Shown: piece by piece, positions 5,027 to 37,975 of the stretch
How positions within the stretch are numbered: position 1 is the first letter of the stretch
Layout of the letters: each line of letters begins with the position of its first letter
IMG/VR virus record: IMGVR_UViG_2695420398_000011
From: a virus
Taxonomy: Duplodnaviria; Heunggongvirae; Uroviricota; Caudoviricetes
Direction: 5' to 3' (one strand)
DNA length: 37,975 nucleotides
Notes under the pieces: model-generated
The model's database searches: none
Told to the model about the DNA's origin: nothing
What the model saw: only the letters and a program-made list of their open reading frames with translations
Position numbers and translations under genes: made by a program

Positions 5027-7822
5027 GTGGCAACGGAGTACATCAGAGACTGGCAACAACCACGCCATGCAGTCGGTGGCGAGGGAACGGGGGAGCCTGT
5101 CCGCCCCTCCCTTCTTTCTTCCTGGCTGGATGCCTACCGGGCAGAGAACGAGCGCCGCCAGGAAATGGCTGATGCGGCGTTCTCCGCTGCACCACTGGGC
5201 AATCTGATTAATAAAAGCCTGGACGCACAGGAAAAACAGGACAAAGCCATCACACTGGCAAGAGAAGCCAGAAAGCAGGCACGCGGTGCGGTGGATGAAG
5301 CCATGGCCTCGCTGCGTCTGCTGCCGTCCTATCTGCGTGATCCGCTTATCCGCCATCTCTCTTTCCTGCACAAAAAACAGGAATCTGGCCACCAGAAAGG
5401 CAAAAAGAACCAGCAGGCGGAACGCTATGCGAGCGGAACCCTGCGCAAAATATTCGAACGTCTGGCCCGCACCGACCGTCGCTGGCTGACTCCGGGTTAT
5501 CGCTCCCTTGCCGGACGTGAACGTCTGGACGATTTGCTGTACCTGCCACAGCTCAACAAGCACCAGATACAGACGCTGGCCGTCATGACGGCGGCAATGT
5601 TCAGCAGCACCTTCGAAAAACTCTGCGATGGCTGTGGCGCGACCGACGGCGAGCTGACCATGGATATAACGCTGAAGGCGTATCAGATGCTGGCCCGCAT
5701 GGCGTTACATCTGCACACAGTGCCGCCGCATTATGACGCACTGACAACAGACAAAGACCGGAAGAACGAACCGGACACGGAACTGCTGCCGGGTGCAATC
5801 CTCCGCCTGACCTGTGCGGACTGGTGGAAACGCAAACTGTGGCTTTTACGTTGCGAATGGAGAGAGGAACAACTCCGCGCTGCCTGTCTAGTTTCCAGAA
5901 AAACATCACCCTATCTGAGTCAGGACGCATTAAGTGAATTTCGCGCACAGCGCGAGAAAACACGCGATTTCCTGAAAAGTTTCATGCTGGAAAATGAAGA
6001 CGGGTTCACGATTGATCTCGAGACAGTGTATTACGCGGGAGTAAGTAACCCGGTCCACCGTAAGGCAGAAATGATGGCCACCATGAAGGGACTGGAACTT
6101 CTGGCCGAAGCCCGTGGCGACAGAGCGGTGTTTCTGACTGTCACCTGCCCGTCAAAATACCACGCTACAACAGAGAACGGTCATCCGAATCCCAAATGGA
6201 ACGGCGCCACCATGCGCGATTCCAGTGATTACCTGGTTAACACTTTTTTTAAGGCGGTCCGCAAAAAACTGAATCGCGACGGCCTGCGCTGGTATGGCAT
6301 CCGCACGGTGGAGCCACACCATGACGGCACCGTGCACTGGCACATGATGGTCTTTGCACATCCTGAAGAAATCGACAGCATCGTGGACATCACCCGTGAT
6401 ATTGCCATTCGCGAAGACCGCCACGAGCTGGGCAATGACATAACTCCGCGCTTTAAGGCAGAGTACGTCGACGGTTCGAAAGGTACGCCGACCAGCTACA
6501 TCGCCACCTACATCGGAAAGAACCTGGACAGCCGCGCCGTGGATGGCATTGACCCGAAAACAGGCAAGCCACGCGTTGATCACGAAACCGGAAAATCAAT
6601 GGCCGAGAGCGTGGAACGCGCCATCGGCTGGGCGCGCCTTCACCGCGTCCGCCAGTTCCAGTTCTTTGGTATCCCCTCCCGTCAGGTATGGCGTGAACTC
6701 CGCCGCCTTGCCAGTCAGATGGCCCGCAACCCGGAAGGTCCACAACGTCTGGAAAATGACGCAATGGATGCGGTACTCGCTGCCGCTGATGCCGGGTGTT
6801 TTGCCACCTACATTGAGAAACAGGGTGGCGTACTTGTTCCACGCAAGGATTACCTGATTCGCACCGCCTACGACCTCGCAGAAGAGCTGAACGATTACGG
6901 CGAGCAAAGCGTACAGATTTACGGGATCTGGTCGCCACAAATCGGGGAATCTTCCCGCGTGTGCACGCACCCGGATAACTGGAAGCTGGTAAGACGTAAA
7001 CCGGAAGCGGAAGACAGCGCCCGCGAAAATGGTTTTGACCTTCAGGGCGGCCCTGCCGCCCCTTGGACTCGTGGCAATAACTGTCCCCGTGTACAGGAAA
7101 CGGACAACAACGGGACAGAACAGCCGGAAGAACGGCCATCACCGTGGCCGCAGCTTCCTGACGGCGTTGACGTGAATGAATGGATGCGCTCACTGAAACT
7201 GCACGAACGCCGGGCGCTGATGCGTTCGCTGCGTGACAAACAGGCAAAAAACAGCAGTGATGAAATGCAGAACTGGACACAGAGCCGCAAACAGCCACGG
7301 CCTTTGCCTGATAACCACGAGTTACTCGCTAAAGAATGGCGGGAGTCTGCTGAATCTCTCGGCCTGCATATCGGTGAACAGCAGATGCAGCACCTGTTAC
7401 GGGGCGGCAGTCTGTACGTTGACGGCAGCATCATTGCACCGCAGGGATTTGAAATTGTACGCAAACCGGATACCCGCCCGGACAGCCGAATCACGCAGCT
7501 CTGGCAGCGCCTGAGCCGCAATCACGGCGTAAGCAGCACGGAGATCCGCCATAACCCGGTCGCCAGCTATCTGGAACAGCTGGGGGCATCAGACCCCGAA
7601 GCCGCCGCACGCCTGGCATCCACACTTCAGCAGGACCAGAACACCATGAAAACCCCCGTTACCGTGCTTTCTGACATGCTGCGCGCCATCCGTGACGCAG
7701 AGCACGCACAGAGAATCAGTGAAACCACTGAACGCGCCCACCGCAAAGCAGACCTGCTGCGGGGGCCTGACCAGTGGAAACAAAAAACAGACAGAAACGG
7801 GATTCACAAATCCCGTAAATGA
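5027..7822 (+). CDS. A: Rolling-circle replication initiation endonuclease (P2 gpA-like, HUH superfamily)
   Basis: 931-aa ORF with probable GTG start; HUH motif HWHMMVFAH; position at end of early operon as in P2/186. Confidence 0.85.
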   Translation: MATEYIRDWQQPRHAVGGEGTGEPVRPSLLSSWLDAYRAENERRQEMADAAFSAAPLGNLINKSLDAQEKQDKAITLAREARKQARGAVDEAMASLRLLPSYLRDPLIRHLSFLHKKQESGHQKGKKNQQAERYASGTLRKIFERLARTDRRWLTPGYRSLAGRERLDDLLYLPQLNKHQIQTLAVMTAAMFSSTFEKLCDGCGATDGELTMDITLKAYQMLARMALHLHTVPPHYDALTTDKDRKNEPDTELLPGAILRLTCADWWKRKLWLLRCEWREEQLRAACLVSRKTSPYLSQDALSEFRAQREKTRDFLKSFMLENEDGFTIDLETVYYAGVSNPVHRKAEMMATMKGLELLAEARGDRAVFLTVTCPSKYHATTENGHPNPKWNGATMRDSSDYLVNTFFKAVRKKLNRDGLRWYGIRTVEPHHDGTVHWHMMVFAHPEEIDSIVDITRDIAIREDRHELGNDITPRFKAEYVDGSKGTPTSYIATYIGKNLDSRAVDGIDPKTGKPRVDHETGKSMAESVERAIGWARLHRVRQFQFFGIPSRQVWRELRRLASQMARNPEGPQRLENDAMDAVLAAADAGCFATYIEKQGGVLVPRKDYLIRTAYDLAEELNDYGEQSVQIYGIWSPQIGESSRVCTHPDNWKLVRRKPEAEDSARENGFDLQGGPAAPWTRGNNCPRVQETDNNGTEQPEERPSPWPQLPDGVDVNEWMRSLKLHERRALMRSLRDKQAKNSSDEMQNWTQSRKQPRPLPDNHELLAKEWRESAESLGLHIGEQQMQHLLRGGSLYVDGSIIAPQGFEIVRKPDTRPDSRITQLWQRLSRNHGVSSTEIRHNPVASYLEQLGASDPEAAARLASTLQQDQNTMKTPVTVLSDMLRAIRDAEHAQRISETTERAHRKADLLRGPDQWKQKTDRNGIHKSRK

Positions 7823-7923
7823 GCAAAAAACGTGCCGCGATATATGAAGCGCGCACAAAACAGGCAAAAGCGGGATTTAAAAATCCTGTAACCGATTAAT
7901 TAATCAACATAAGGAAAAGCGAC

Positions 7924-8883
7924 ATGAAAATTTGTATCGACGACGGCTCCACCAATATCAAGCTGGCATGGACTGAGAACGGCGAACGCCGCAACGCTAT
8001 CAGCCCGAACAGCTTCAAGTCGGAATGGTCTGCGCCGTTCGGTGGCACGCAGCCCGCGAACTACATGCTTGATGGCGTGCGCTATGGTTTTGATCCGGTC
8101 AGCGATCGCTTTGTCCAGACGACCGACACGCAATACCAGTACAGCGATGTGAATGTCATTGCCATTCATCACGCGCTGGTCAAATCAGGCATCACACCAC
8201 AGGAGGTGGATGTGGTTGTCACCCTGCCACTGAGCGAGTATTTCGACACAAACGCACAGCCGGACATGGCCAACATCAACCGCAAAAAAGCGAACGTTAT
8301 GCGCCCGGTGGAGTACCAGAACGGCAAAGCATTCACTATCCGTAACGTACGGGTTATGCCTGAATCTATTCCGGCTGGCTTTAAAGCACTGGCTGACATG
8401 AGTCCGTTTGAATCCCTGCTGATTGTGGATTTAGGCGGAACCACGCTGGATGTAGCAAAGGTTCAGGGACAACTGGCAGGTATCAGCCAGGTGTTTTGCG
8501 ATCCACACGTAGGCGTTTCCCTGATGGCCGATGCAGTACTGTCGGTGATGGCCACTAACGGTATGCGTACCAGTCACCACATCGCCAATACCATTATCGA
8601 ACATCGCCATGATGAAGCCTGGCTGCGCCAGCACATCCATAATGACGCGCATTACGCCAGCCTGATGGCGGTTATTCGTGAAAAGGAAGAAACACTGAAA
8701 CAACGCGTGATCCGCGCACTGGCGGGTTTTTCGGGTTACGGGCGGGTGATGGTTGTCGGTGGCGGGGCGGAGATTGTGGCACCCGCTATCCGCGAAGCCT
8801 GCGGAGTTAATGCGACTTTCATCGCGGACGGGGGGCCACAGTTTGCTCTGGTTAATGGGCTGTACGCAATGGACAAGGAGTAA
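7924..8883 (+). CDS. parM: Actin-like segregation ATPase ParM (StbA family)
   Basis: 319-aa ORF; N-terminus MKICIDDGSTNIKLAW..ISPNSFK..YSDVNVIAIHHAL closely matches plasmid R1 ParM as recalled (MLVFIDDGSTNIKLQW..). Confidence 0.9.
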   Translation: MKICIDDGSTNIKLAWTENGERRNAISPNSFKSEWSAPFGGTQPANYMLDGVRYGFDPVSDRFVQTTDTQYQYSDVNVIAIHHALVKSGITPQEVDVVVTLPLSEYFDTNAQPDMANINRKKANVMRPVEYQNGKAFTIRNVRVMPESIPAGFKALADMSPFESLLIVDLGGTTLDVAKVQGQLAGISQVFCDPHVGVSLMADAVLSVMATNGMRTSHHIANTIIEHRHDEAWLRQHIHNDAHYASLMAVIREKEETLKQRVIRALAGFSGYGRVMVVGGGAEIVAPAIREACGVNATFIADGGPQFALVNGLYAMDKE

Positions 8884-8887
8884 ACCA

Positions 8888-9199
8888 ATGACGACTCCAA
8901 CCAGACGGATAAGTTTCTATCTGAAGCCCGCCGCCGTCAAGAACGAAGGAGAAGCATGCGCCTGGCTGGACAGCCTTACACCAGAAGCCCGCAAAAGCGG
9001 CCAACGCGTGGCTTTTCTGGCCGGGCTGGCACTTCTGAAAATGAATCCGGCAGAGGCTTACCGACTAGCTGCATGGGCTGATGATGAAGCGTTATCAGTG
9101 ACACAAACCAGGACAGAACGCCCCGCATCACAGCCAGTATCAACCGCACAGATAACCAGTCAGATGGCCGGAAATATCCGGGCGTTATTTCCTGAATAA
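8888..9199 (+). CDS. parR: ParR-like centromere-binding adaptor (StbB family)
   Basis: ATG 8888 just after parM stop; ISFYLKPAAV..CAWLDSLTPEARKSGQRVAFLAGLALL and C-terminal IRALFPE parallel R1 ParR (IAFKLNPDVN..TLDSIP..AALTAGLAL..LRSLFPKE). Confidence 0.8.
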   Translation: MTTPTRRISFYLKPAAVKNEGEACAWLDSLTPEARKSGQRVAFLAGLALLKMNPAEAYRLAAWADDEALSVTQTRTERPASQPVSTAQITSQMAGNIRALFPE

Positions 9200-9262
9200 C
9201 ACAACATCAGGGCGAGTTCGCCCTGCTCTCCACCTCAGAACATAAACAAGGAGAACGACTTA

Positions 9263-9646
9263 ATGAGCGAAATCAACTATCAGGCATTACGTGAACGTTA
9301 TTCACCTGTGCCAGTACCGAAATGCCCTATTTGCGGCGAGGAAATGTCAATTCAGCGAATATCTGGAGCACAGGTTGTTTATGCCTGCTCCGGTTATGGT
9401 GATGATGGAGATTTCAAAATTGGTCGAACTCTTGCCGACGAACATTATGAAAAATCACGCGTAACAGTGTTGGATGTCGGGGATCCTGAAGTATTGGCGC
9501 TACTTGATTGGCTGGAAACCAAAGACAACCGAATCGCTGAACTGGAAAAAATCGCCACTGACTATGCACTTAAATTCCAGAAAGCACAGGACGCATTAAA
9601 GTACGCCGCTTTGCTGCATAGCAGGACAGCGCAGCTACAAGACTAA
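9263..9646 (+). CDS. Hypothetical zinc-ribbon / coiled-coil protein
   Basis: 127-aa ORF; CPICG...YACSGYG cysteine cluster then a helical C-terminus. Confidence 0.5.
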   Translation: MSEINYQALRERYSPVPVPKCPICGEEMSIQRISGAQVVYACSGYGDDGDFKIGRTLADEHYEKSRVTVLDVGDPEVLALLDWLETKDNRIAELEKIATDYALKFQKAQDALKYAALLHSRTAQLQD

Positions 9647-9736
9647 CTTAAAGCGGAAGATTAATACATGGTGAGTCAGGGTAATTTGTTTTTATCCCGA
9701 CAAATAAACAAAAAAGTGGACTATCTCTGTAGTATC

Positions 9737-10267
9737 TTATTCAGCATCGTCTCGTGCAGTCTGTGCATACGTCACAACAACGCCCAATGCATTAGTTTTC
9801 TTTTCAACATAGATAATATTGTCATATTCATAGTTACCATACGGATAGCAAATAAGAATATTTTTATGCAGATCGGGATCATCAACAAACGCTCCGGAAC
9901 AGCTTCTTGAACTACCGGATGTATACTCATACGGTGCAACATATGATGATGTTACTCCTGGTAAAAAATAAGTCACCATCATAAGAGGGATAATCAGGAA
10001 TATCCCTGTAAGAATGCAAGAGCCAGCATAAACCTTCAGGTATTCCGACAGTCCTTTCCAGCCACTTTGCTTCACTACCCCCCTCTTCACCAGAAACAAG
10101 GAGAAGAAAAAGGACATACCCATACTACACAAGATGTAATAATTGGATATACGCGAATTAAGATATGTAATCCTGTAGATATCTGCCCTCCACCAGTAAA
10201 AGAGGAAAATAATCCCTAGCACTGAAACAGTCATGCAAATCAAATAAGGATATGAATCTTTCTTCAT
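9737..10267 (-). CDS. Hypothetical integral membrane protein (AT-rich cargo gene)
   Basis: 176-aa ORF with about three predicted TM helices and a Tyr/Ser-rich C-terminal domain; strongly AT-rich relative to flanking phage genes. Confidence 0.5.
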   Translation of the reverse strand: MKKDSYPYLICMTVSVLGIIFLFYWWRADIYRITYLNSRISNYYILCSMGMSFFFSLFLVKRGVVKQSGWKGLSEYLKVYAGSCILTGIFLIIPLMMVTYFLPGVTSSYVAPYEYTSGSSRSCSGAFVDDPDLHKNILICYPYGNYEYDNIIYVEKKTNALGVVVTYAQTARDDAE

Positions 10268-10745
10268 GTCTTGCGCTCATTAAAATTTCCCTGCTACGAA
10301 CAAATTTACCATCCGTTTTTTGCGCAGAAAACAGCACGATGCACACTGCACGATAGTGCACAAATTTGCACAATTTTTTTGAACGACTTTTTACCCTTCC
10401 GGCCCGCATGGCGGCTGGATCCGTCAAGGATCCGTGCGTGCACAAAAAAACGCGTTTTTTCTGCGCGTAGGTGACGGGGGAACAGCCCGCGTTTCAGGGG
10501 GTAAATAGCATTCCCTGAACGATGTCGCAGAGACACAACAGAATGGCTGTATTTCTCACGCTGAGCGTGAAAAATACGTGAGGGATTCTGATTTGATGGG
10601 GTGAAAGGTAAGGCCGTCAAAATCGCACTGAGGCGGCAAAGAACATGCAGTCAACGCGGTGGGATTGCGTAAGAGTCTGACCGCCGATGATGGCAATAAG
10701 CAGAAAAGCGTCGTGAAATTATCTGATTGATACAGGAGCTGGAGA

Positions 10746-10774
10746 GCCGGGGCATAAATTTTTTATGCCCCGGC
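10746..10774 (-). terminator. Perfect 13-bp-stem hairpin immediately downstream of portal gene Q
   Basis: GCCGGGGCATAAA-ttt-TTTATGCCCCGGC palindrome; candidate terminator of the leftward P-Q operon, though the T-run lies inside the loop rather than 3' of the stem. Confidence 0.35.
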
Positions 10775-10798
10775 GAAGCAGCAGACAAGCGAAGCGCG

Positions 10799-11845
10799 TC
10801 AGGATGTGGGCTGGGTATCTAACAGTGCGTAAGGGTTAAAGCGGATCACCTCTTCGCCAAGCCAGTCATTGATGTGCTTCATGGCCTCCATGACGGGCAT
10901 CAGCTCGTTAATTGCGTAAACCCGCGCGGCCTTCTCCACATCACCAAACGCACTTTTTTCACCCGGCATCGCCCCCATCAGTTGCGGCGGAACGCGGTGC
11001 GCAGCCAGCACATCATCACGGGATGCCGCCTTAACATTCATGAACTCATCCTTTGCGGTGATCTGCTGGAACGGCAAAATTTGCACCCCCTCTTTGCCCC
11101 CGTTGGGCGCATGAATGAGCACGTTTTTAAACGCACCGCCACCACGTGCACCCTGTAGCGTTTCTTTCAGGGAGTCCATGCTTTCGCGGTTTACCTGCGC
11201 TGCACCGATGTAGATGATGCACCCGGCGTGGGATCCGTTGTCGTAATACAGTTTTCTGAACATGTCCGCCGAATGAGACAGGCTGGCCGAGAGTAATGCG
11301 CCGAGATATTCCGGCATGCCGTAGATTTCCTGGTTAATGTCAGGATTCATCAGGTGGCACACTTTGCCAGGGCGAAACTGGAACGCATCCTTGCCATCCT
11401 GCACATACCACCATGATTCAAGATCGCTACCGCGTCGCATGTATTTCGCCAGGGCGTGCCGTAATTTAAGCGGTTCGCCGAGCATATTGCTTCGAAGCTC
11501 AAGGAATGCGTTACCGAACACAAACCAGTCCAGCGCCAGCGCCGAGAAATCCTGCCGGGAAAGCAGCGGGTGCGGGATGTAGCAACCGAGTAATACATTG
11601 CGCTTAAAGTAAAGCGCAGACTGATGCCAGGACGTTTGCCGGGCAGCTCTTGCCAGACCGTACCAGTCCACCGGGGTTTCATACCACCGCCCGTTATCAG
11701 CACAGTACATATTGTCCAGCAGGTCATGCCCGGTCAGGCGATAAGGACCATCAAATGTGAATGCACTGAGCGACGATTCTTTCCTGAGCGCATCAGCGAG
11801 ATCAATGCGTGAACTCATGCGCACTTTTTTATTTTTTCTGCTCAT
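10799..11845 (-). CDS. Q: Portal protein (P2 gpQ-like)
   Basis: 348-aa ORF; size, position and orientation (divergent from capsid operon, next to terminase) match P2 Q. Confidence 0.85.
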   Translation of the reverse strand: MSRKNKKVRMSSRIDLADALRKESSLSAFTFDGPYRLTGHDLLDNMYCADNGRWYETPVDWYGLARAARQTSWHQSALYFKRNVLLGCYIPHPLLSRQDFSALALDWFVFGNAFLELRSNMLGEPLKLRHALAKYMRRGSDLESWWYVQDGKDAFQFRPGKVCHLMNPDINQEIYGMPEYLGALLSASLSHSADMFRKLYYDNGSHAGCIIYIGAAQVNRESMDSLKETLQGARGGGAFKNVLIHAPNGGKEGVQILPFQQITAKDEFMNVKAASRDDVLAAHRVPPQLMGAMPGEKSAFGDVEKAARVYAINELMPVMEAMKHINDWLGEEVIRFNPYALLDTQPTS

Positions 11846-13596
11846 CAGAACTCCATAACCGTGAAACGCTCGTTTTCTCCTTCGCCGCCAATCGGTTCGT
11901 TAATGACAGCAAGCATGGTTGCCCACGCAAGGTCGCCGTGGCTGATCCCCCTCGCGCGGTCCGTTTCGTAAGTGATGAAGCCGCCCGGTGTTTTCACCTT
12001 ACGCACGGCGTTAAAGGCCGCGACCAGCTCGCGTTCGGCGCGATCGTATTCCCACCGCCCGGCACGCATTATTTGCAGCATTTTCAGTACCAGCGACCGT
12101 TTTGATGACAGCGTGAAGGTGTACGGAATAGCAGCAGGGAAAAACCGTTTCACTATCTGATAAACAGCCTCCCCGTTCCCGCCCGTCACATCAATGCCGA
12201 TGTGTTCCACGTTGTAGCGACACGTGAACTCTTCAATGACTCTGGCCTGTTCTTCAAACTCCAGCCCCTGAACGCGTCGCGTCTCCACCGTTCGAAAACG
12301 GCCACCAGGAACAGCCGGAGGAACCACCACGGACACAGCGCCGCTGTCGCCGTTGCCACTGCTGCCGTTTGCGTCATACCCAATCCATACCGGACGATTC
12401 CCCATCGGGCGGGGAGCAAAAGGTTTCCAGTCTTTCCAGTCGTCGTATCCGTCAACGCCACAGCCAATCAGGATATTCAGGTTAAATGCCGATTCCCCTT
12501 CGCGGACAAACTCACACATATAGAGATTGAGGAACTCGTCTTCGGTGTTTTCATCACGAATTTCGTTGATATCGGTGTGTTTCCAGCCGTGATTAACCAC
12601 ATCTTCCAGCGTGACAATTTGCCGCCACGTCCTGTCAGAGCAGATAAGCCCGTTATGCAGCGTTTTCCAGTCCACAGAAAAACGCTGGCGTTTATGCGAG
12701 GCCTTTTTCTCGTTCCAGCGGTCGCCGTTCCAGTAGGCGTATGCCTCGTGCGTTTCGGTGGATGGCGTGGAGAAGTAGGTGCGCCGCAGTCCGCTGAGGG
12801 TTGCCATAGCGCCAGCCACCTTGCGCAGTTCAGCAAAGCGACTGACCCAGAAAAATTCATCAAAATAAAAATTGCCCGTATAGGACTGTGCCGACGCAGC
12901 AGAAGTGCCGAGAAAATGCAGCTCTGCGCCGTTGGAGAGGATGATTTTATCGCCCCCTTTCAGCTCGACATCAACTTCAGCCGCGGCCTTCTGAATAATG
13001 CTTTTAAACTGGAACGCCTGACGACGCGACGCAGACAAAAAAATCTGGTTACGCTGGTAAGGCTGCGCCACATCGTCACGCAGCGCCATCAGCAGTGCTT
13101 CCTGCGCAAAATACCATGTCGCCCCAATCTGTCGGGATTTCAGGATCATCCTGTTACGTATCCCGGCTTCCCTGCAAAGGGTCAGGGAGTCAAACCAGCC
13201 CCGCTGATGCCACTCCAGCCTGCTGATGATTTTTTCCCGCAGTGCGGCAATCTGTTCCGGCGTGAAATGATTCTTGAGCTTTTTCGCCCGGCCTTTCTTT
13301 CCTGTGGCCGTTGCATCCGGCTGGCCATCATGCAGTTTTTTAAGCTGCCGGGTCAGCAGGTCTATTTCCTTGAAGTCACCACCTGTTTTATTCTGTTTTT
13401 CAGTAAGCTGGATGAGGCGCGCATCGATGGACTGCGTGACACGCTGCACGGGTGGCGTTTCATCCCACTGGTCGCGTTTTTTCCACGCATAAATCGTGTT
13501 CGGGTTTATTCCCATCAGACGTGATATTTCTGCGGGCGGATAACCCTGCCAGTAAAGTTGCCGCGCACGCTGGCGCACAAAAGCGTCCTGAATCAT
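11845..13596 (-). CDS. P: Terminase large (ATPase) subunit (P2 gpP-like)
   Basis: 583-aa ORF upstream of Q on the same strand; N-terminal HTH-like region, typical size. Confidence 0.85.
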   Translation of the reverse strand: MIQDAFVRQRARQLYWQGYPPAEISRLMGINPNTIYAWKKRDQWDETPPVQRVTQSIDARLIQLTEKQNKTGGDFKEIDLLTRQLKKLHDGQPDATATGKKGRAKKLKNHFTPEQIAALREKIISRLEWHQRGWFDSLTLCREAGIRNRMILKSRQIGATWYFAQEALLMALRDDVAQPYQRNQIFLSASRRQAFQFKSIIQKAAAEVDVELKGGDKIILSNGAELHFLGTSAASAQSYTGNFYFDEFFWVSRFAELRKVAGAMATLSGLRRTYFSTPSTETHEAYAYWNGDRWNEKKASHKRQRFSVDWKTLHNGLICSDRTWRQIVTLEDVVNHGWKHTDINEIRDENTEDEFLNLYMCEFVREGESAFNLNILIGCGVDGYDDWKDWKPFAPRPMGNRPVWIGYDANGSSGNGDSGAVSVVVPPAVPGGRFRTVETRRVQGLEFEEQARVIEEFTCRYNVEHIGIDVTGGNGEAVYQIVKRFFPAAIPYTFTLSSKRSLVLKMLQIMRAGRWEYDRAERELVAAFNAVRKVKTPGGFITYETDRARGISHGDLAWATMLAVINEPIGGEGENERFTVMEF

Positions 13597-22008: not shown

Positions 22009-23835
22009 ATGAGTACCACAACACGAAAATTTAAAACCATTATCACTGATACTGGTGCCAAAAAATTAGCTCAGGCAGCCGCGCCAGATGGTAATCCTGT
22101 CCGCCTGACTCACATGGCCGTGGGCGACGGTGGCGGCACGTTGCCCACACCAGACAGTAAGCAGACCCGTCTGGTGCATGAGGTGTGGCGACATACTGTT
22201 AATCGCGTCATCCTGGACGCAACACATCAGAACCGCATTATTGCGGAGCTGGTTATTCCTCCTGAAACGGGCGGATTCTGGATCCGGGAAATTGGTGTAT
22301 TTGATGAGCACGGCGATTTAATCGCGGTGGGCAATACTGCCGAAAGTTACAAACCAACCGTTGCCGAGGGGTCCGGACGTGCACAAACATTTCGCACCAT
22401 TCTGACCGTATCCAGCACTGCCACCGTGGCGCTTACCGTGGATAACACCATGGTGATGGCCACAGTGGATTACGTGAATGACAAACTGAAAGAACATGAA
22501 CAGTCACGACGTCACCCGGACGCCTCGCTGACCGCAAAAGGCTTTGTTCAACTCAGTAGCGCCACTAACAGCACGTCTGAAGCACTGGCCGCAACGCCGA
22601 AAGCGGTCAAGACAGCCTATGACCTTGCTAACGGGAAATATACCGCTCAGGACGCCACGACGGCACGAAAAGGAATAGTCCAACTCAGTAGCGCCACTAA
22701 CAGCACGTCTGAAGCACTGGCCGCAACGCCGAAAGCGGTCAAGACAGCCTATGACCTTGCTAACGGGAAATATACCGCACAGGACGCCACGACGGCACGA
22801 AAAGGAATAGTCCAGCTCAGTAGCGTCACTAACAGTGATTCTGAAACGCTTGCCGCGACTCCGAAAGCGGTGAAAGCCGCTAATGACAATGCAAACGGGC
22901 GTGTGCCCTCTGGACGTAAGGTTAATGGCAAATCACTAGCCAATGATGTCAATGTTACATCGCAGGATATTTTTAACGACCAGAGTATTGAGATTGGTGC
23001 AAATCAGAATCTGGATAATTACAAAACACCGGGGCTGTACCATCAGCCATTGAATGCCAATACAAGCGCAGCGCTGAAATACCCGGAGAATTTTGCGGGT
23101 ACACTGGTTGTGCTTAAAAATGCCGGGATAACACAGATTTACTATGTGTATGACACATCCAGAAGCTATACCCGCAGCCAGTACTCAACGGGTGACTGGA
23201 CACCATGGACGCCACAAGATTCATTTCCGGTAGGTGCGGCGATACCGTGGCCTTCTGATTCAGTGCCTACAGGCTATACCGTTATGCAGGGGCAGACTTT
23301 TGATAAAACAGTCTACCCCCTGCTTGCAGTCGCTTATCCGTCTGGTGTGATCCCTGATATGCGTGGCTGGACGATTAAGGGCAAACCCGCCAGTGGTCGG
23401 GCCGTATTATCTCAGGAACAGGACGGCATTAAATCACACTCCCACAGTGCCAGCGCGTCCAGTACGGACTTGGGGACAAAAACCACATCATCATTTGACT
23501 ACGGCACCAAGACGTCCAGTTCATTTAACCATGGCACTAAAACCACGAATAGCGCCGGGGATCATTCACACAATATTCCTGTTGGCAACACTGGCGCTGG
23601 TAATGGTGTTTCGGCTGGTTATAACTCAGGGCTTGGCACTGGAAAAACAAGTAACGCAGGGGGGCACTCTCACACAGTAAATATTGGCGCACACACTCAT
23701 ACGGTAGGAATTGGCGCACACACACACTCCGTTGCGATAGGTTCACACGGGCATACCATCACCGTTAACGCTACGGGTAACGCAGAAAACACCGTAAAAA
23801 ACATCGCATTTAACTATATTGTGAGGCTTGCATGA
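22009..23835 (+). CDS. H: Tail fibre protein (P2 gpH-like), with internal tandem repeats and His-rich tip
   Basis: 608-aa ORF; repeated [19 protein letters not shown] units; C-terminal [35 protein letters not shown] HxH repeats typical of fibre tips. Confidence 0.85.
22540..22900 (+). repeat. Tandem 132-bp in-frame repeats within the tail fibre gene
   Basis: Copies at about 22540-22671 and 22672-22803 are near-identical, followed by a diverged partial third copy. Confidence 0.8.
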
Positions 23836-24734
23836 TTACGCTCATTCTTTCTGCACCAGTAACAGAAATGGCTGAAGCATTTAAGCAGGTATTTGCAAAT
23901 GCAGATAGTGTGAATATTGTCGGAAAGCCATTTGAAACAATCAGAGAATTTGACTGCATGGTAAGTGCGGCAAATAGTTTCGGCTTGATGGATGGTGGCG
24001 TTGATGCCGCCATTACCGCATTCTTCGGTACTCAGTTACAGTCCCGCGTTCAGAATCATATTCTTCGTGAATATCTCGGCGAACAGCCTGTAGGTTCTGC
24101 ATTTGTCATTGAAACGGGGCATAATCATCACCCCTGGCTGGTACATGCGCCAACAATGCGTGTTCCGTTGACAATTGACGGAACAGACGCTGTATATAAC
24201 GCAACCTGGGCCGCTCTGCTTGCCATCTTTCAGCACAATAAAAACGCAACGACAGACATGAAAATAAAAACAGTGGTATTCCCTGCAATGGGGGCCGGAT
24301 GTGGTCAGGTGCCGTTTGAAAGTGTTGCCCGACAGATGAAGCAGGCATGGGATAACTTTAATAAAAAAACAGAATCAATTAACTGGGAATACGCACAATC
24401 TCGCCAGTCGGCAGTATTTGGCACATATGCATACTGTCCGGGTAATTCCGTTTGCCGTTATGCGGATACTAAATATATTGGATGCGGCGATTATCGGACG
24501 TGTTGCTCTCGTTCCGGGCAACTCTGTATTAACCCTGAACATCAGGCTGATGATGTACTGATACAACATCAGGCTAATAACCGTTTTCGCCCTGGTTCGC
24601 ATATACACCGGATTAATCCAGAAAATCCCGTAGGTAATGTCACCTCTGGCGCACATAGCCACGGAAGTAGCATCGTTATTGGTACTCCTACCCATACGCT
24701 CAATAAACAATATTCTGTCTCTGATATTAAGTAG
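23832..24734 (+). CDS. Macro-domain protein with Cys/His-rich fibre-tip-like C-terminus
   Basis: 300-aa ORF, start overlaps H stop; [17 protein letters not shown] and [14 protein letters not shown] resemble macro-domain motifs (NAAN..GGGVDGAI, FPAISTG) as recalled; C-terminus [17 protein letters not shown] resembles HxH fibre tips. Confidence 0.6.
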
Positions 24735-25364: not shown

Positions 25365-25970
25365 CTATTTATACAATACAACACCACTCTTTTTAGTTAT
25401 ATATGTGCAGTTTGATGGTATATCTTTATTTATAAAAGACATTGCACCTATTTTTACATTATCCCCAATTTTACGTGACAATCCAATGATGCAACAATTA
25501 GCTCCGATATCAACGTTACTACCAATTTTCACTCTTGAACCAGGCATGTCACCATCTATCTGTCCAATGGTAGTATTCTGTCGTAATACCAGATTTTCAC
25601 CCGCATCAACAGCAAAATGAACAACAATTCCAGCATGATGGGGAATTGTTAACCCTTTTCCAATATTTGCTCCCAATCCTATTTCACAACCAAATTTGTT
25701 AATTATTTTACTGTTTAACTTTTTGGCTGCTTTCTTATGTAATTTATTACCATTAATATACATTTCGTTAGCCAACCGCCACCAGAAAAGGAAATTCCGG
25801 TTACGCTGCTTTTTCTCTCTTAAAAGCCTCCAGATATCCATACGTTTCCGCCGAATTACTTCATGTTTCCAGAAGTTTTTTAAATTAGTAGAGTTCCCAA
25901 ATAAAACAAAGTGAATTGCCATTAAGTAAGACAGCACGAAAATCTCCTTAATTATTATTTCAGACCACAC
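25365..25970 (-). CDS. Hexapeptide-repeat acyltransferase (serine O-acetyltransferase / CysE-WcaB-like)
   Basis: 201-aa ORF; left-handed beta-helix repeats (IGLGANIGKG..IGSNVDIGANCCIIG..IGDNVKIGAMSFI); strongly AT-rich; at the position of P2 Z/fun. Confidence 0.7.
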   Translation of the reverse strand: MWSEIIIKEIFVLSYLMAIHFVLFGNSTNLKNFWKHEVIRRKRMDIWRLLREKKQRNRNFLFWWRLANEMYINGNKLHKKAAKKLNSKIINKFGCEIGLGANIGKGLTIPHHAGIVVHFAVDAGENLVLRQNTTIGQIDGDMPGSRVKIGSNVDIGANCCIIGLSRKIGDNVKIGAMSFINKDIPSNCTYITKKSGVVLYK

Positions 25971-33041: not shown

Positions 33042-33509
33042 TTATTGTTTAATGGCGTTTTCTATCCATGTCGCCAAATTGTTCTTGATATCGCTATAAG
33101 CGTCGTTAAAGTTAGGTTCATATACGAGTGGTTTAATTACTCGATCGCCTCGCTTAAATGTAAATTGGTCGAAAGGATTCGGTCCTTTTGTCCCATAGCC
33201 GTTACGAGGGCATTTCAGTCGATGAATATAAATACCCACCACAGCCTTACCCTCTTTCCAGGCTCTTTCGATCTCATACTTGACCCATGGGCGATTAGCC
33301 GTTTGACTCCCGATCAGTACTACTAAGCAGGATTTGCCATTTAAGCTCTGATTAATCCAATTCTTCACGCCCTGCTCAGTTCGTTTAATTTGTTCCCAAG
33401 TATTTGGGCTAACCGGTTCATCCCCCTCCAGCACTCCCATGTTACGAATCTGCTGTACCCGCATAACATCGTTATCAAAGTGAAAGCTGTAAAATACCTT
33501 ACGTTTCAT
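33042..33509 (-). CDS. thsB: Thoeris ThsB (TIR-like domain protein)
   Basis: 155 aa; KVFYSFHFDND...CLVVLIGSQTANRPWVKYEIERA...GKAVVGIYIH...KGPNPFD parallels Bacillus ThsB (RVFFSFHYQD..CVLIGSQTFNRRWVRYEI..KGPNPFD) as recalled. Confidence 0.85.
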   Translation of the reverse strand: MKRKVFYSFHFDNDVMRVQQIRNMGVLEGDEPVSPNTWEQIKRTEQGVKNWINQSLNGKSCLVVLIGSQTANRPWVKYEIERAWKEGKAVVGIYIHRLKCPRNGYGTKGPNPFDQFTFKRGDRVIKPLVYEPNFNDAYSDIKNNLATWIENAIKQ

Positions 33510-33511
33510 AT

Positions 33512-34978
33512 CTAACCTCCTAGTTTCTTTAAAATTTCTAAAACTTTCATTTCGATATTTGCCCGATTAGCAGAGAGATCTGCAAGCTGAGCAACTTCCT
33601 TTTCCAACCAAGGGTACCGGACAAAATGTTTACTTGGATCCGTCAGCATCTCGTCAGCTAGTTCCTTGGCCATATAACCAGTGACGCCAAGTGGAAGCAC
33701 GACAACCCCTGTTTCCTGAGCAATTTGAAACTCCCTTCGGACCCCATCAGCATTAACGATTCGACCATCATGGAGTTTATTCCCAAAAAGGAATATAGCG
33801 ATTCCAGAAAGACCAATCATACGCTGCCGATATTCGTCCCATAGCTCGCTCAGGGCTTTATCGTTTGATGAGTGTTGAGGGAATGGCCGCATGATAAGTT
33901 GCTCTTCTGAGTACTTATCAGGCTTAGAATAAATGGCTTCAAGAGCTCCGTTGATGACCGCACTACCAATACCCCATCCAAACCCATTGACAACTCGATA
34001 GCCATTCTTCACCAAAGATGACGAAAGTATGTGTACAAAGTTTAGTGCTTCCTGTTTGTCCCAAGCGCCATACTCTTCTGCACTACCAGATATAAATATG
34101 GTCTTCTTGAGGAAGCGACTCTCAATCTCTTTCAATATAAGTGGAATATCATCGTACTCGTTTACTAATACAGCCTGAATGCCAAAACGGAGCAAATCGC
34201 GAATATGATGTTCTTGCCTACGCTGCCTATACATAGCGCCAGCTTCATCTTCATTTCCTTGCGGCAGAGAGGGTTCCTTACGAAGAAAGCAGTAGTGTCT
34301 ACGACGATGCTTCTCCGGAACATGCAATCGGCTCAATATGTAATCAAGATTAGGATCAGTAAAACTGAAGCCAATAAATAAGAATGTCTTAGAAATCAAA
34401 TCTCCACTCAATGCTGTAACAAACCCCTCATGGGTCTTGTAGTACTGCTCATACTGAGCTTTATAAAGTATGGCGTCACCTGGCGAGCTAACATCACCAT
34501 GCATTTTGTAAACAACAGCATCTCGTTTAGGACGAGTGGAAATAAGATCATCGGTTCTGCGTTTAATATCTGCGACACGGTAGTTTTCTTTGAGACTATC
34601 TTCAATCAAAGTGTCATAGTTGGTTGTCCAATAAGTTCTAATGGGTAGTCTAGCAAGGATTTTATGGGCTTCGGAAGGTTCCGCTTGCTCCGAGAATTCC
34701 TCTAGGATTTTTCTAGCTAAACCAGTTGAGCTGTTGTTCTTGTTGACATGGTATTGTGCAACCGAAATTAAGTCGTGCTCTAGCTCAACAGAAAGGCCTA
34801 ATTCTTCAGCAATTTCACGCAGCAGTTCACTCCAATTAACGAAGCCGCTGGTTCTAGATAGGCCCGCACCAGCAAAAACGGCGGCAACCCCTTCTTCGAG
34901 ATCCTTCACATAAGTCCTGATAAAAGCTTCAACTTCAGCCGAAAACTGAACACTCATATTTTTAGACAATCCGGTCAA
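33512..34978 (-). CDS. thsA: Thoeris ThsA (N-terminal SIR2 domain, C-terminal SLOG domain)
   Basis: 488 aa; SIR2 hallmarks FAGAGLS, TTNYD, MHGD; C-terminal FISGSAEEYG...GFGWGIGSAVINGALE typical of SLOG; directly upstream of thsB on the same strand; AT-rich. Confidence 0.85.
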   Translation of the reverse strand: MTGLSKNMSVQFSAEVEAFIRTYVKDLEEGVAAVFAGAGLSRTSGFVNWSELLREIAEELGLSVELEHDLISVAQYHVNKNNSSTGLARKILEEFSEQAEPSEAHKILARLPIRTYWTTNYDTLIEDSLKENYRVADIKRRTDDLISTRPKRDAVVYKMHGDVSSPGDAILYKAQYEQYYKTHEGFVTALSGDLISKTFLFIGFSFTDPNLDYILSRLHVPEKHRRRHYCFLRKEPSLPQGNEDEAGAMYRQRRQEHHIRDLLRFGIQAVLVNEYDDIPLILKEIESRFLKKTIFISGSAEEYGAWDKQEALNFVHILSSSLVKNGYRVVNGFGWGIGSAVINGALEAIYSKPDKYSEEQLIMRPFPQHSSNDKALSELWDEYRQRMIGLSGIAIFLFGNKLHDGRIVNADGVRREFQIAQETGVVVLPLGVTGYMAKELADEMLTDPSKHFVRYPWLEKEVAQLADLSANRANIEMKVLEILKKLGG

Positions 34979-35719: not shown

Positions 35720-35956
35720 ATGTGGAAAGGCCCCGGAAAAACATCTCTGTTTAACCGAGGCCCTAACCGCATTACCTTGACAAGTGAAAGGTTAGCGCCT
35801 CTCCGGAAAAGGAGCAAGTGCTATGTCGCAAAAATCGCTTACGGCCATCACGTTCTGCGTGACGGCAATCCTCATCATCTGGATGCTGCACGGTTCGCTG
35901 TGCGAAATACGGATGAGCTTCTGGGGAGCGGAGTTTGCGGCGTTCTTACAGTGTAA
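35720..35956 (+). CDS. mok-like overlapping reading frame of the hok-like locus
   Basis: 78-aa ORF in a different frame that starts upstream of and spans the hok-like ORF, as in hok/mok/sok loci. Confidence 0.35.
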   Translation: MWKGPGKTSLFNRGPNRITLTSERLAPLRKRSKCYVAKIAYGHHVLRDGNPHHLDAARFAVRNTDELLGSGVCGVLTV

Positions 35957-35963
35957 GCAGTAA
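35823..35963 (+). CDS. Hok/Gef-family type I toxin (small membrane peptide)
   Basis: 46-aa ORF MSQKSLTAITFCVTAILIIWMLHGSLCEIRMSFWGAEFAAFLQCKQ; TM helix plus conserved SLCEI(R) and AAF motifs of Hok proteins; structured 5' leader; 3' hairpin at about 35975-35995. Confidence 0.7.
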   Translation: MSQKSLTAITFCVTAILIIWMLHGSLCEIRMSFWGAEFAAFLQCKQ

Positions 35964-36049
35964 GGAAACCGCGACGGGGGAGCAATCCCCCGTCAATCGG
36001 TTGCCAAGGTAAGGTCGATAAGGCACCCTATCTCATAGAGATGAATAAC

Positions 36050-36973: not shown

Positions 36974-37060
36974 TGGTACCCGGAGCGGGACTTGAACCCG
37001 CACAGCGCGAACGCCGAGGGATTTTAAATCCCTTGTGTCTACCGATTCCACCATCCGGGC
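36974..37060 (-). tRNA. leuZ: tRNA-Leu (anticodon UAA)
   Basis: 87-nt sequence matching E. coli leuZ as recalled; anticodon loop TTTAAAA in tRNA sense; 3' CCA encoded. Confidence 0.9.
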
Positions 37061-37072
37061 TCGGGAAGAAAG

Positions 37073-37146
37073 TGGAGGCGCGTTCCGGAGTCGAACCGGA
37101 CTAGACGGATTTGCAATCCGCTACATAACCGCTTTGTTAACGCGCC
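37073..37146 (-). tRNA. cysT: tRNA-Cys (anticodon GCA)
   Basis: 74-nt sequence matching E. coli cysT as recalled; anticodon GCA. Confidence 0.9.
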
Positions 37147-37199
37147 AAATTCTTCAGGCCTTTCAGCCAGACATCCGCTGACGCCGATGTCTTTTAAAC

Positions 37200-37275
<76 letters not shown>

Positions 37276-37426
37276 ATTCATCAAGCAATCAGTTAATCAC
37301 TTGATTTTATTATCGTCTGGCAATCAGTGCCGCCGTTCGATGCGTTGCATTCTACTTACCTGGCGCGATGAGTCAACGATATTTTTCACCACTTTTGATT
37401 GTTTGCTGAAAATTACGCCGAAACGA

Positions 37427-37975
37427 TCACTGTTCAAGCAAATCTGCACGCGCAGCGCTCAAATATTGCAACATTGACCACAGAGTCAGTACCGCAGCCA
37501 CAAAGAAAAGTGCAATACCGGCGTACTCAACCCAAATGTTCGGACGCCACAGCAGCCAGGCCAACGCCACCATCTGGGCAGTGGTTTTCACTTTCCCAAT
37601 CCAGGAGACAGCCACGCTACTGCGTTTACCCAACTCCGCCATCCATTCGCGTAGCGCAGAAATAATAATTTCACGGGCGATCATCGTTGCCGCCGGTAAG
37701 GTCACCCACCAGCTGTGATAATGCTCGGTTACCAGCACCATGGCGATAGCCACGAGAACTTTATCTGCGACAGGGTCAAGGAAAGCACCAAACCGGGTAC
37801 TCTGGTTCCAGCGGCGTGCCAGAAAACCATCGAACCAGTCAGTCACCGCCGCGACGCAGAAAATGAGCGCGGCGGCAAACGGCGACCAGGTGACAGGCAG
37901 ATAAAAGACCAATACAAAGAATGGGATAAGGATGACACGGAACAGTGTAAGCAACGTAGGGATATTAAATTGCAT
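37427..37975 (-). CDS. pgsA: CDP-diacylglycerol--glycerol-3-phosphate 3-phosphatidyltransferase
   Basis: 182-aa [23 protein letters not shown]... matches E. coli PgsA along its length as recalled; start codon is the last three bases of the window. Confidence 0.95.

Follow-up and report, generated by a model that had tools for sequence, protein, structure and literature searches.

A conserved ParM–ParR pair with a candidate two-dyad centromere in an integrated P88-like prophage of Escherichia coli

The ParMRC system of plasmid R1 combines an actin-like protein, ParM, with a centromere, parC, composed of ten 11-bp direct iterons, and a 117-residue adaptor, ParR, whose tail binds ParM, as seen in a ParM–ParR peptide structure. 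Actin-like systems are also documented in chromosomally integrated elements. The CGP3 prophage of Corynebacterium glutamicum encodes AlpAC, an actin-like system that is induced early, on excision, binds repeats upstream of its own operon and is needed for a full yield of replication; with its deletion, circular phage DNA falls to half its copy number (PMC4446434). The SrpMRC system of SXT/R391, an integrative and conjugative element, stabilises the excised element, which replicates by rolling circle, and its centromere comprises four 13-bp repeats (PMC4489591). Among phages, a putative plasmid partitioning system has been noted in ‘around a fourth of P2-like phages’ (Rousset et al. 2022, PMC9122126). 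Here we describe one such gene pair, parM and parR (parMR), located at positions 7,924–9,199 of a 37,975-nt stretch of viral DNA (IMG/VR record IMGVR_UViG_2695420398_000011; the whole stretch is hereafter called the window). Gene content and profile matches identify the window as an integrated P2-like (P88-type) prophage of Escherichia coli together with its right-hand host flank.

The presence of parMR in P2-like phages is already known. RefSeq annotates the pair as ParM and a partitioning/stability protein, PHROGs holds both proteins as ‘partition protein’ families, and the phiSM paper lists the partition gene as a ‘fitness’ factor. Our literature search for functional studies of ParM in P88, phiSM or Xuanwuvirus found none, and returned annotation-level mentions only. 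An earlier account of this DNA, made from its letters without database searches (the sequence-only reading), had treated a partition pair on an integrating phage as a surprise; CGP3 AlpAC and SXT/R391 SrpMRC are documented instances, and the pair itself is annotated and in print. Added here are the status of parMR as a conserved part of its phage lineage, its occupation of the same locus across diverged P2-like lineages of Enterobacterales, a three-part anatomy of ParR and a two-dyad parC candidate. Judged on these features, parMR is probably a functional type II (ParMRC-type) DNA-positioning module of P88-like (Xuanwuvirus) phages, acting on replicating or excised circles. We propose more tentatively that an integrating, rolling-circle P2-like clade may use an R1-type filament and a minimal two-dyad centromere to organise genome circles in the lytic or establishment phase, and not for plasmid inheritance.

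The gene parM (7924–8883, + strand) encodes a 319-residue predicted filament-forming, actin-like ATPase of the R1/StbA family (phrog_691, ‘partition protein’). Residues 1–157 match StbA_N (PF06406, E-value of 3.8e-82) and residues 159–316 match the ParM C-terminal domain (PF21523, E-value of 2.5e-68), with both domains covered over their full length. The protein also matches the solved structures of R1 ParM (PDB entry 1mwk, E-value of 8.7e-93 over residues 2–316) and is 46.7% identical to R1 ParM. The nucleotide-binding motifs IDDGSTNIKL (phosphate 1), VDLGGTTLD (phosphate 2) and VVGGGAE (adenosine) are intact and align with those of R1. The likeness to R1 ParM reported in the sequence-only reading is thus borne out by an end-to-end alignment, and the comparison with R1 parMRC that it had suggested upholds the similarity of both proteins. 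Across 64 distinct alleles, the ratio of nonsynonymous to synonymous polymorphism (pN/pS) of parM is 0.077, and the gene is intact in 83 of the 88 related loci fetched, most of the remaining five being cut by contig ends. This pattern of polymorphism indicates that parM is under strong purifying selection.

The gene parR (8888–9199, + strand) begins 5 nt past the parM stop codon and encodes a 103-residue adaptor protein of the R1 StbB/ParR family. Residues 6–76 match Plasmid_stab_B (PF10784, E-value of 1.6e-24), the Pfam family of StbB/ParR of R1/NR1, in agreement with the ParR-like adaptor that had been recognised after parM. RefSeq places the start at the ATG at 8888; a program-made list of open reading frames (ORFs) gives a longer frame with a TTG start from 8753. 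The protein has three parts. The N-terminal domain, composed of an invariant strand (RRISFYLKP) followed by two helices, is conserved (pN/pS of 0.35). The linker, comprising approximately residues 67–92, is hypervariable and evolves near-neutrally (pN/pS of 0.83); homologues within the P88-like phage family fall to 41–57% overall identity, and nearly all of this divergence is located in the linker. The last 11 residues carry the motif N-I-x-x-(L/F/M)-F-P, which is invariant in the phage family (pN/pS of 0.19). The same N-terminal pattern and a C-terminal N-x-x-x-L-F-P are found in ParRs from IncI and IncL/M plasmids, which have approximately 40 extra residues in the middle. The C-terminal motif is presumed to be the ParM-binding helix, and the overall layout is the one expected of an adaptor, in which a flexible tether would join a putative head for DNA binding to a tail for ParM binding.

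A sequence search of ParR against the PDB matched no solved structure. The AlphaFold2 monomer model has a predicted local distance difference test score (pLDDT) of 56 and leaves the N-terminal strand unmodelled, so that it agrees only in the order of secondary-structure elements; at this low confidence, a helix is predicted at residues 86–100. Near-identical parR genes of the E. coli type also occur in two Firmicutes-labelled assemblies, a contig titled Vagococcus sp. (L084) and a 229-bp sequence from Fredinandcohnia humi (L086), where they most likely represent contamination.

Upstream of parM lies a direct repeat made of two 38-nt copies, 82% identical and 73 bp apart, each containing a GGG-N10-CCC dyad. 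Unit 1 (7781–7818) consists of an A-rich arm and the dyad GGGATTCACAAATCCC (7799–7814, at −125 from the parM ATG) and is positioned inside the 3′ end of gene A, the replication gene that precedes parM. Unit 2 (7854–7891) carries the dyad GGGATTTAAAAATCCT (7872–7887, at −52), which reads CCT in the window as opposed to CCC in the majority of P88-like variants. Among 56 distinct P88-like variants, the dyad of unit 1 is perfect in every one and the GGG-N10-CCC of unit 2 is intact in 41; substitutions cluster in the dyad centre and, at unit 1, are confined to it. The exact window dyad is found nowhere else in the window. A sensitive blastn search with positions 7775–7925 against 72,556 plasmids detected no plasmid homologue of this region, returning only copies of the prophage itself. 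Between unit 2 and parM (7894–7919, + strand) are an AT-rich box, GATTAATTAATC (7894–7905), with a TTAATCAA motif, and the ribosome-binding site AAGGA (7911–7915).

We regard the two-dyad element as a candidate parC that provides sites for ParR. It does not have the form of the R1 archetype, in which some ten short direct iterons flank the par promoter: Tandem Repeats Finder reported no relevant tandem iteron array, and autocorrelation of the upstream region revealed only the 73-bp repeat, without a periodicity of 10–11 bp. What is present are repeated cis sites just upstream of parM that are conserved and, as far as the sequences compared below indicate, co-vary with the adaptor, as expected of a parC in general. 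The sequence-only reading had reported no parC repeat array and only AT-rich palindromes upstream of parM, and had suggested searching the flanks for iterated sites. Its statement holds for tandem iterons and for a canonical array, and fails for the two-copy 38-nt repeat. Only unit 2 had been seen, as the palindrome GGATTTAAAAATCC (7873–7886); unit 1 was missed because it is located inside the 3′ end of gene A. All three palindromes then described exist, CAGGGCGAGTTCGCCCTG exactly at 9208–9225, and GGATTTAAAAATCC and GATTAATTAATC approximately 2 nt from the positions given for them.

Comparison with other P2-like lineages provides the best available in silico evidence that the dyads may be ParR sites. 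These lineages, reached through ParM homologues of 54–63% identity, are represented by prophages of Hafnia (L095), Plesiomonas (L096), Serratia (L097) and Enterobacter (L098). All four share the order A, parM, parR, cargo, Q, and their A proteins are only 34–55% identical to that of the window. In the Hafnia prophage, GGG-N10-CCC dyads are positioned at −128 and −55 (spacing of 73 bp), and in the Plesiomonas prophage at −131 and −59 (spacing of 72 bp). The upstream DNA of these two prophages cannot be aligned with that of the window despite the same two-site layout, and the TTAATCAA box is kept in all three. When each of the three upstream regions was shuffled 20,000 times, two dyads 65–80 bp apart never arose. 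The Hafnia prophage possesses an extra ORF between A and parM, and there the dyads stay with parM past the intervening ORF, which argues that the element follows parMR rather than A.

The dyads accompany ParRs with the strand TRR[IV]SFYL. The Serratia and Enterobacter prophages belong to another ParR clade, with the strand NRKISFYL and an N-terminal domain 57–60% identical to IncL/M and IncI ParRs. GGG-N10-CCC dyads are absent upstream of parM in these two lineages, which instead contain inverted arms of 14–20 nt, GGGAAC.A.ATAGAAAAAT, resembling the TTTTTCTATA iterons of an IncL/M plasmid. The cis element therefore appears to co-vary with the adaptor, since dyads and ATAGAAAAAT-type arms are split by ParR clade. 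Within the P88-like family, co-variation is uninformative, as all ParR variants, even at 41% identity, have their N-terminal domain and upstream DNA in common. When IMG/VR was scanned with the Hafnia and Plesiomonas ParRs, no further relatives were detected; a scan with the Serratia ParR detected three only, and one scan of genome contigs returned only close relatives.

The element carrying the module is identified by its gene content as an integrated P2-like prophage, because a gene A with a Phage_GPA match is combined with an integrase at one end (1–1002, − strand, with a repressor-side block after it) and the host genes leuZ-cysT-glyW-pgsA at the other (36974–37975). The integrated P2-like prophage with parMR directly after gene A that the sequence-only reading described is confirmed by the same three features. 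Its nearest relatives among named phages are P88, Xuanwuvirus P884B11, PhiR44_2 and Citrobacter phage phiSM, and E. coli strain H3 carries a near-identical copy (99.8%) between yecA and leuZ; the element is thus an integrated P88-like member of the Peduoviridae. Gene A (5027–7822, + strand; Pfam Phage_GPA, E-value of 3.9e-129), annotated in RefSeq as ‘replication endonuclease’, encodes the rolling-circle initiator. A tightly packed early operon, running rightward (+ strand) from approximately 2750, ends with A as its final replication gene, immediately ahead of parM; the A stop codon and the parM ATG are only 77 bp apart in most relatives. The A protein of P2 is a cis-acting rolling-circle initiator, and P2 replication yields monomeric double-stranded circles, which are the packaging substrate. 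Separately, the window copy of gene A has a 2-bp deletion at approximately 7764 (codon 914) relative to nearly all relatives, shifting its last 18 codons and ending the gene at 7822 instead of approximately 7847; the deletion is shared with one related locus (L005) and is absent from the strain H3 copy.

Scans of the window and of a majority-type relative (L003) detected no sigma-70 consensus promoter upstream of parM, and no + strand terminator was recognised between A and parM. Given these two results, parMR probably forms the tail of the early replication operon and is expressed with it. Weak candidate promoters (TTTAAA or TTTACA, N17, ATTAAT) were seen by eye upstream of parM and are not relied on. 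In the mechanism we propose, ParR dimers would bind the two GGG-N10-CCC dyads of a compact centromere straddling the end of gene A and the A–parM spacer, and the conserved C-terminal helix of ParR would capture the ends of ParM–ATP filaments; the growing filaments would push centromere-bearing circles apart. The pair would be silent in the repressed, integrated prophage and made only when the phage genome is extrachromosomal, that is, during the A-driven rolling-circle replication that follows infection or induction. It would serve to move monomeric phage circles apart and position them, and the benefit would be either efficient replication and packaging or the inheritance of unintegrated or excised circles when the cell divides.

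Several points weigh against this mechanism. Polymerisation of ParM, binding of ParR to the dyads and the timing of expression are all predictions from sequence, and a ribbon-helix-helix fold of ParR is assumed from family membership only, given the low confidence of the AlphaFold2 model. The presumed ParR dimer sites number four, far below the ten iterons of R1. The P88-like units also resemble minus-strand hairpin-plus-T-run terminators, making a different or dual role possible. In most variants, a TTTACA hexamer lies inside the dyad of unit 2, and a weak ParR-regulated promoter, and hence expression in lysogens, is possible. Finally, partition would be of uncertain benefit in a cell that is due to lyse within an hour.

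The module is widespread and stable within its lineage. Its DNA is present, always with at least 90% identity, in 1,307 of 5,426 complete E. coli genomes (approximately 24%), and a P88-type A gene (at least 90% identity) is present in approximately 1,385, so that approximately 94% of the carriers of this A gene keep parMR (1,307 versus approximately 1,385); conversely, genomes with parMR nearly always contain the P88-type A gene. On this distribution, parMR is to be seen as a conserved part of the P88-like lineage and not as hotspot cargo. The sequence-only reading had assigned the pair to the variable tin/old cargo site and suggested a survey of gene content there; both the retention and the low pN/pS of parM contradict that assignment, and the survey finds a constant module, with the variable interval beginning after parR and extending to the portal gene Q. 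A natural deletion was observed in NZ_CM180504.1 (2021645–2024017), where gene A of a P88-like, presumably defective, prophage is followed by no more than the initial 47 nt of parM, joined directly to the terminase region, the remainder of parMR, the cargo and Q having been lost.

The variable interval, from the parR stop codon to Q, measures 990–2,514 bp in relatives and falls into more than 40 length classes with differing gene content. In the window, this hotspot (9226–10798) lies outside the partition module and contains a truncated Ead/Ea22-like ORF (9263–9646, + strand) and a 176-residue ORF (phrog_1416; 9737–10267, − strand). The cargo looks degraded, with the Ead/Ea22-like ORF given as a C-terminally truncated pseudogene and the 176-residue ORF as frameshifted in the strain H3 annotation. 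The border between conserved module and variable cargo is formed by the GC-rich 18-bp palindrome CAGGGCGAGTTCGCCCTG (9208–9225), located just after parR and with a T-rich tail on the minus strand. This palindrome is likely an end-of-operon hairpin or a terminator for leftward transcripts; the same place is occupied by a different hairpin in a related locus (L087) and by a canonical + strand terminator in the Enterobacter prophage. In one ParR variant lineage (L089 and L090, 5309–5437), parR is followed by a 42-residue ORF with weak similarity to StbA_N, apparently the remains of a second parM after recombination at the edge of the hotspot.

An unlikely but not negligible alternative is that parMRC maintains P88-like phages for many generations as low-copy plasmids, for instance prior to integration or in cells whose attachment site is already taken, an idea put forward in a single sentence by Rousset et al. 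2022 (PMC9122126). The cassette is a complete one of R1 type with a candidate centromere, the known phage-plasmid D6 carries a ParM of the same family (47.8% identity), and in one complete assembly an entire P88-like genome, its integrase intact, is reported as a circular ‘plasmid’ of 34,461 bp (NZ_CP148288.1). That circle could simply be excised, replicating phage DNA, however, and most of the other ‘plasmid’ matches are prophages within very large replicons. A phage-plasmid lifestyle, which the sequence-only reading had offered among several roles, is favoured weakly at best: of the 1,455 copies of parMR counted in complete E. coli genomes, 1,453 lie on chromosomes, and the window prophage possesses an integrase and occupies the site between yecA and leuZ. 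Nor is a copy-controlled, repressor-independent replicon evident. Replication of P2 requires the cis-acting A from a repressor-controlled early operon, which also drives the lytic programme.

It is less probable still that the 38-nt units are tandem terminators against leftward (late or cargo) transcripts antisense to the early operon; ParR would then bind at some other place or not at all, and parMR would be a remnant, either decaying or put to another use. In the window as well as in the majority-type relative, each unit scores as a terminator-like hairpin on the minus strand with a T-rich tail, and a third hairpin followed by TTTTTT on the minus strand can be read directly from the sequence between them. 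The late PQ operon and the 176-residue ORF are transcribed leftward, toward this region. In the Hafnia and Plesiomonas prophages, however, the dyads have arms of only 3–4 bp and no T-run, yet retain the same positions and the 72–73-bp spacing; the conserved feature is therefore a DNA dyad and not an RNA hairpin. The dyad type also tracks the ParR clade, and purifying selection on parM and parR argues against decay.

A conflict function, in which ParMR would disturb incoming ParMRC plasmids or phages (by incompatibility or filament poisoning) or form a defence or abortive-infection filament, is very improbable, although the sequence-only reading had listed both plasmid interference and a defence filament among possible roles: the locus does adjoin a known defence hotspot between A and Q (PMC9122126) and the C-terminal ParR motif is common to plasmid ParRs, so that cross-binding to plasmid ParM is conceivable, but neither protein has a PADLOC match, the module stays constant while true defence cargo beside it turns over, neither the DNA-binding strand of ParR nor the cis sites match those of the plasmids examined, no homologue of the upstream region was found on plasmids, and no promoter for expression in a lysogen was detected.

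Beyond the hotspot, the portal and terminase genes (10799–13596) run leftward and are followed by P2-type head, lysis and tail genes. Other cargo was observed elsewhere in the window. A type I Thoeris pair (33042–34978, − strand) is inserted between a gpD-like gene and ogr, in the second (Z/fun-type) P2 hotspot; its members match PADLOC ThsB (TIR, 155 residues, E-value of 3e-70) and ThsA (SIR2-STALD, 488 residues, E-value of 6e-203). According to the RefSeq annotation of strain H3, a macro-domain protein is encoded between the tail-fibre gene and its assembly gene, with a serine acetyltransferase on the opposite strand just beyond these genes (23832–24734 and 25365–25970); these are possibly receptor-modifying or anti-defence cargo. 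A Hok/Gef-family toxin gene is located beside ogr near the right prophage end (approximately 35800–36000; H3 annotation, L094 14159–14299), and represents another plasmid-type stability gene on an integrated phage.

Approximately a quarter of complete E. coli genomes thus contain a chromosomal copy of a textbook plasmid-segregation machine, kept under strong purifying selection. For annotation, this means that a ParM/ParR match on a contig is not evidence of a plasmid. A tubulin-like filament, PhuZ, organises the genome in jumbo phages. If parMR positions replicating circles as we propose, actin-based genome organisation would extend from a few special cases, PhuZ and the actin-like CGP3 AlpAC, to a very common group of enterobacterial phages, and one of the commonest prophages of E. 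coli would routinely employ active DNA segregation in its life cycle. The element would also offer a naturally minimal parC for working out the smallest number of ParR sites that can cap a ParM filament, and the compact two-dyad candidate is a concrete, easily mutated target.

Among the known systems, R1/NR1 ParMRC (StbA/StbB) is the closest in its proteins and layout. The two ParMs are homologous from end to end and share their domains and motifs, the ParRs belong to one Pfam family and have the C-terminal N-x-x-x-L-F in common, and both systems have the order cis site, parM, parR. In both, the cis site is positioned just upstream of parM in two blocks approximately 70 bp apart, and in the parC of an IncL/M plasmid (L093) the two blocks are likewise 73 bp apart. 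Unlike the plasmid system, the prophage module is carried by an integrating P2-like phage that replicates by rolling circle, and its centromere candidate comprises two dyads, lacks an embedded consensus promoter and has its first site within the coding sequence of gene A. The prophage ParR, with 103 residues, lacks the middle segment of the IncI and IncL/M plasmid ParRs (138–147 residues). Phage-plasmid D6, which is P1-like, is similarly a tailed phage with a ParM of the same family; however, D6 lysogenises as a plasmid, with partition in its ordinary role, whereas P88-like phages integrate.

The closest analogues of the role proposed for parMR would be CGP3 AlpAC and SXT/R391 SrpMRC. In both cases the stabilising or copy-number function was demonstrated experimentally, whereas the window module is known from its sequence. 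AlpC belongs to a distant actin-like family and not to the R1 ParM family, alpS consists of 24 short TTAAnnG repeats, and CGP3 is a cryptic prophage that differs in gene order and host phylum. SXT/R391 is a conjugative element; SrpR has no sequence similarity to ParR, and SrpM is related to ParM only in structure. The likenesses concern the arrangement and the substrate. CGP3, as an integrated prophage, combines an actin-like filament protein with a DNA-binding adaptor and upstream cis repeats, and its system acts on circular phage DNA. SXT/R391 is chromosomally integrated, its excised form replicates by rolling circle with an HUH-type enzyme, and its ParM-type partition system is expressed only on activation of the element, the setting in which parMR of the P88-like phages would act.

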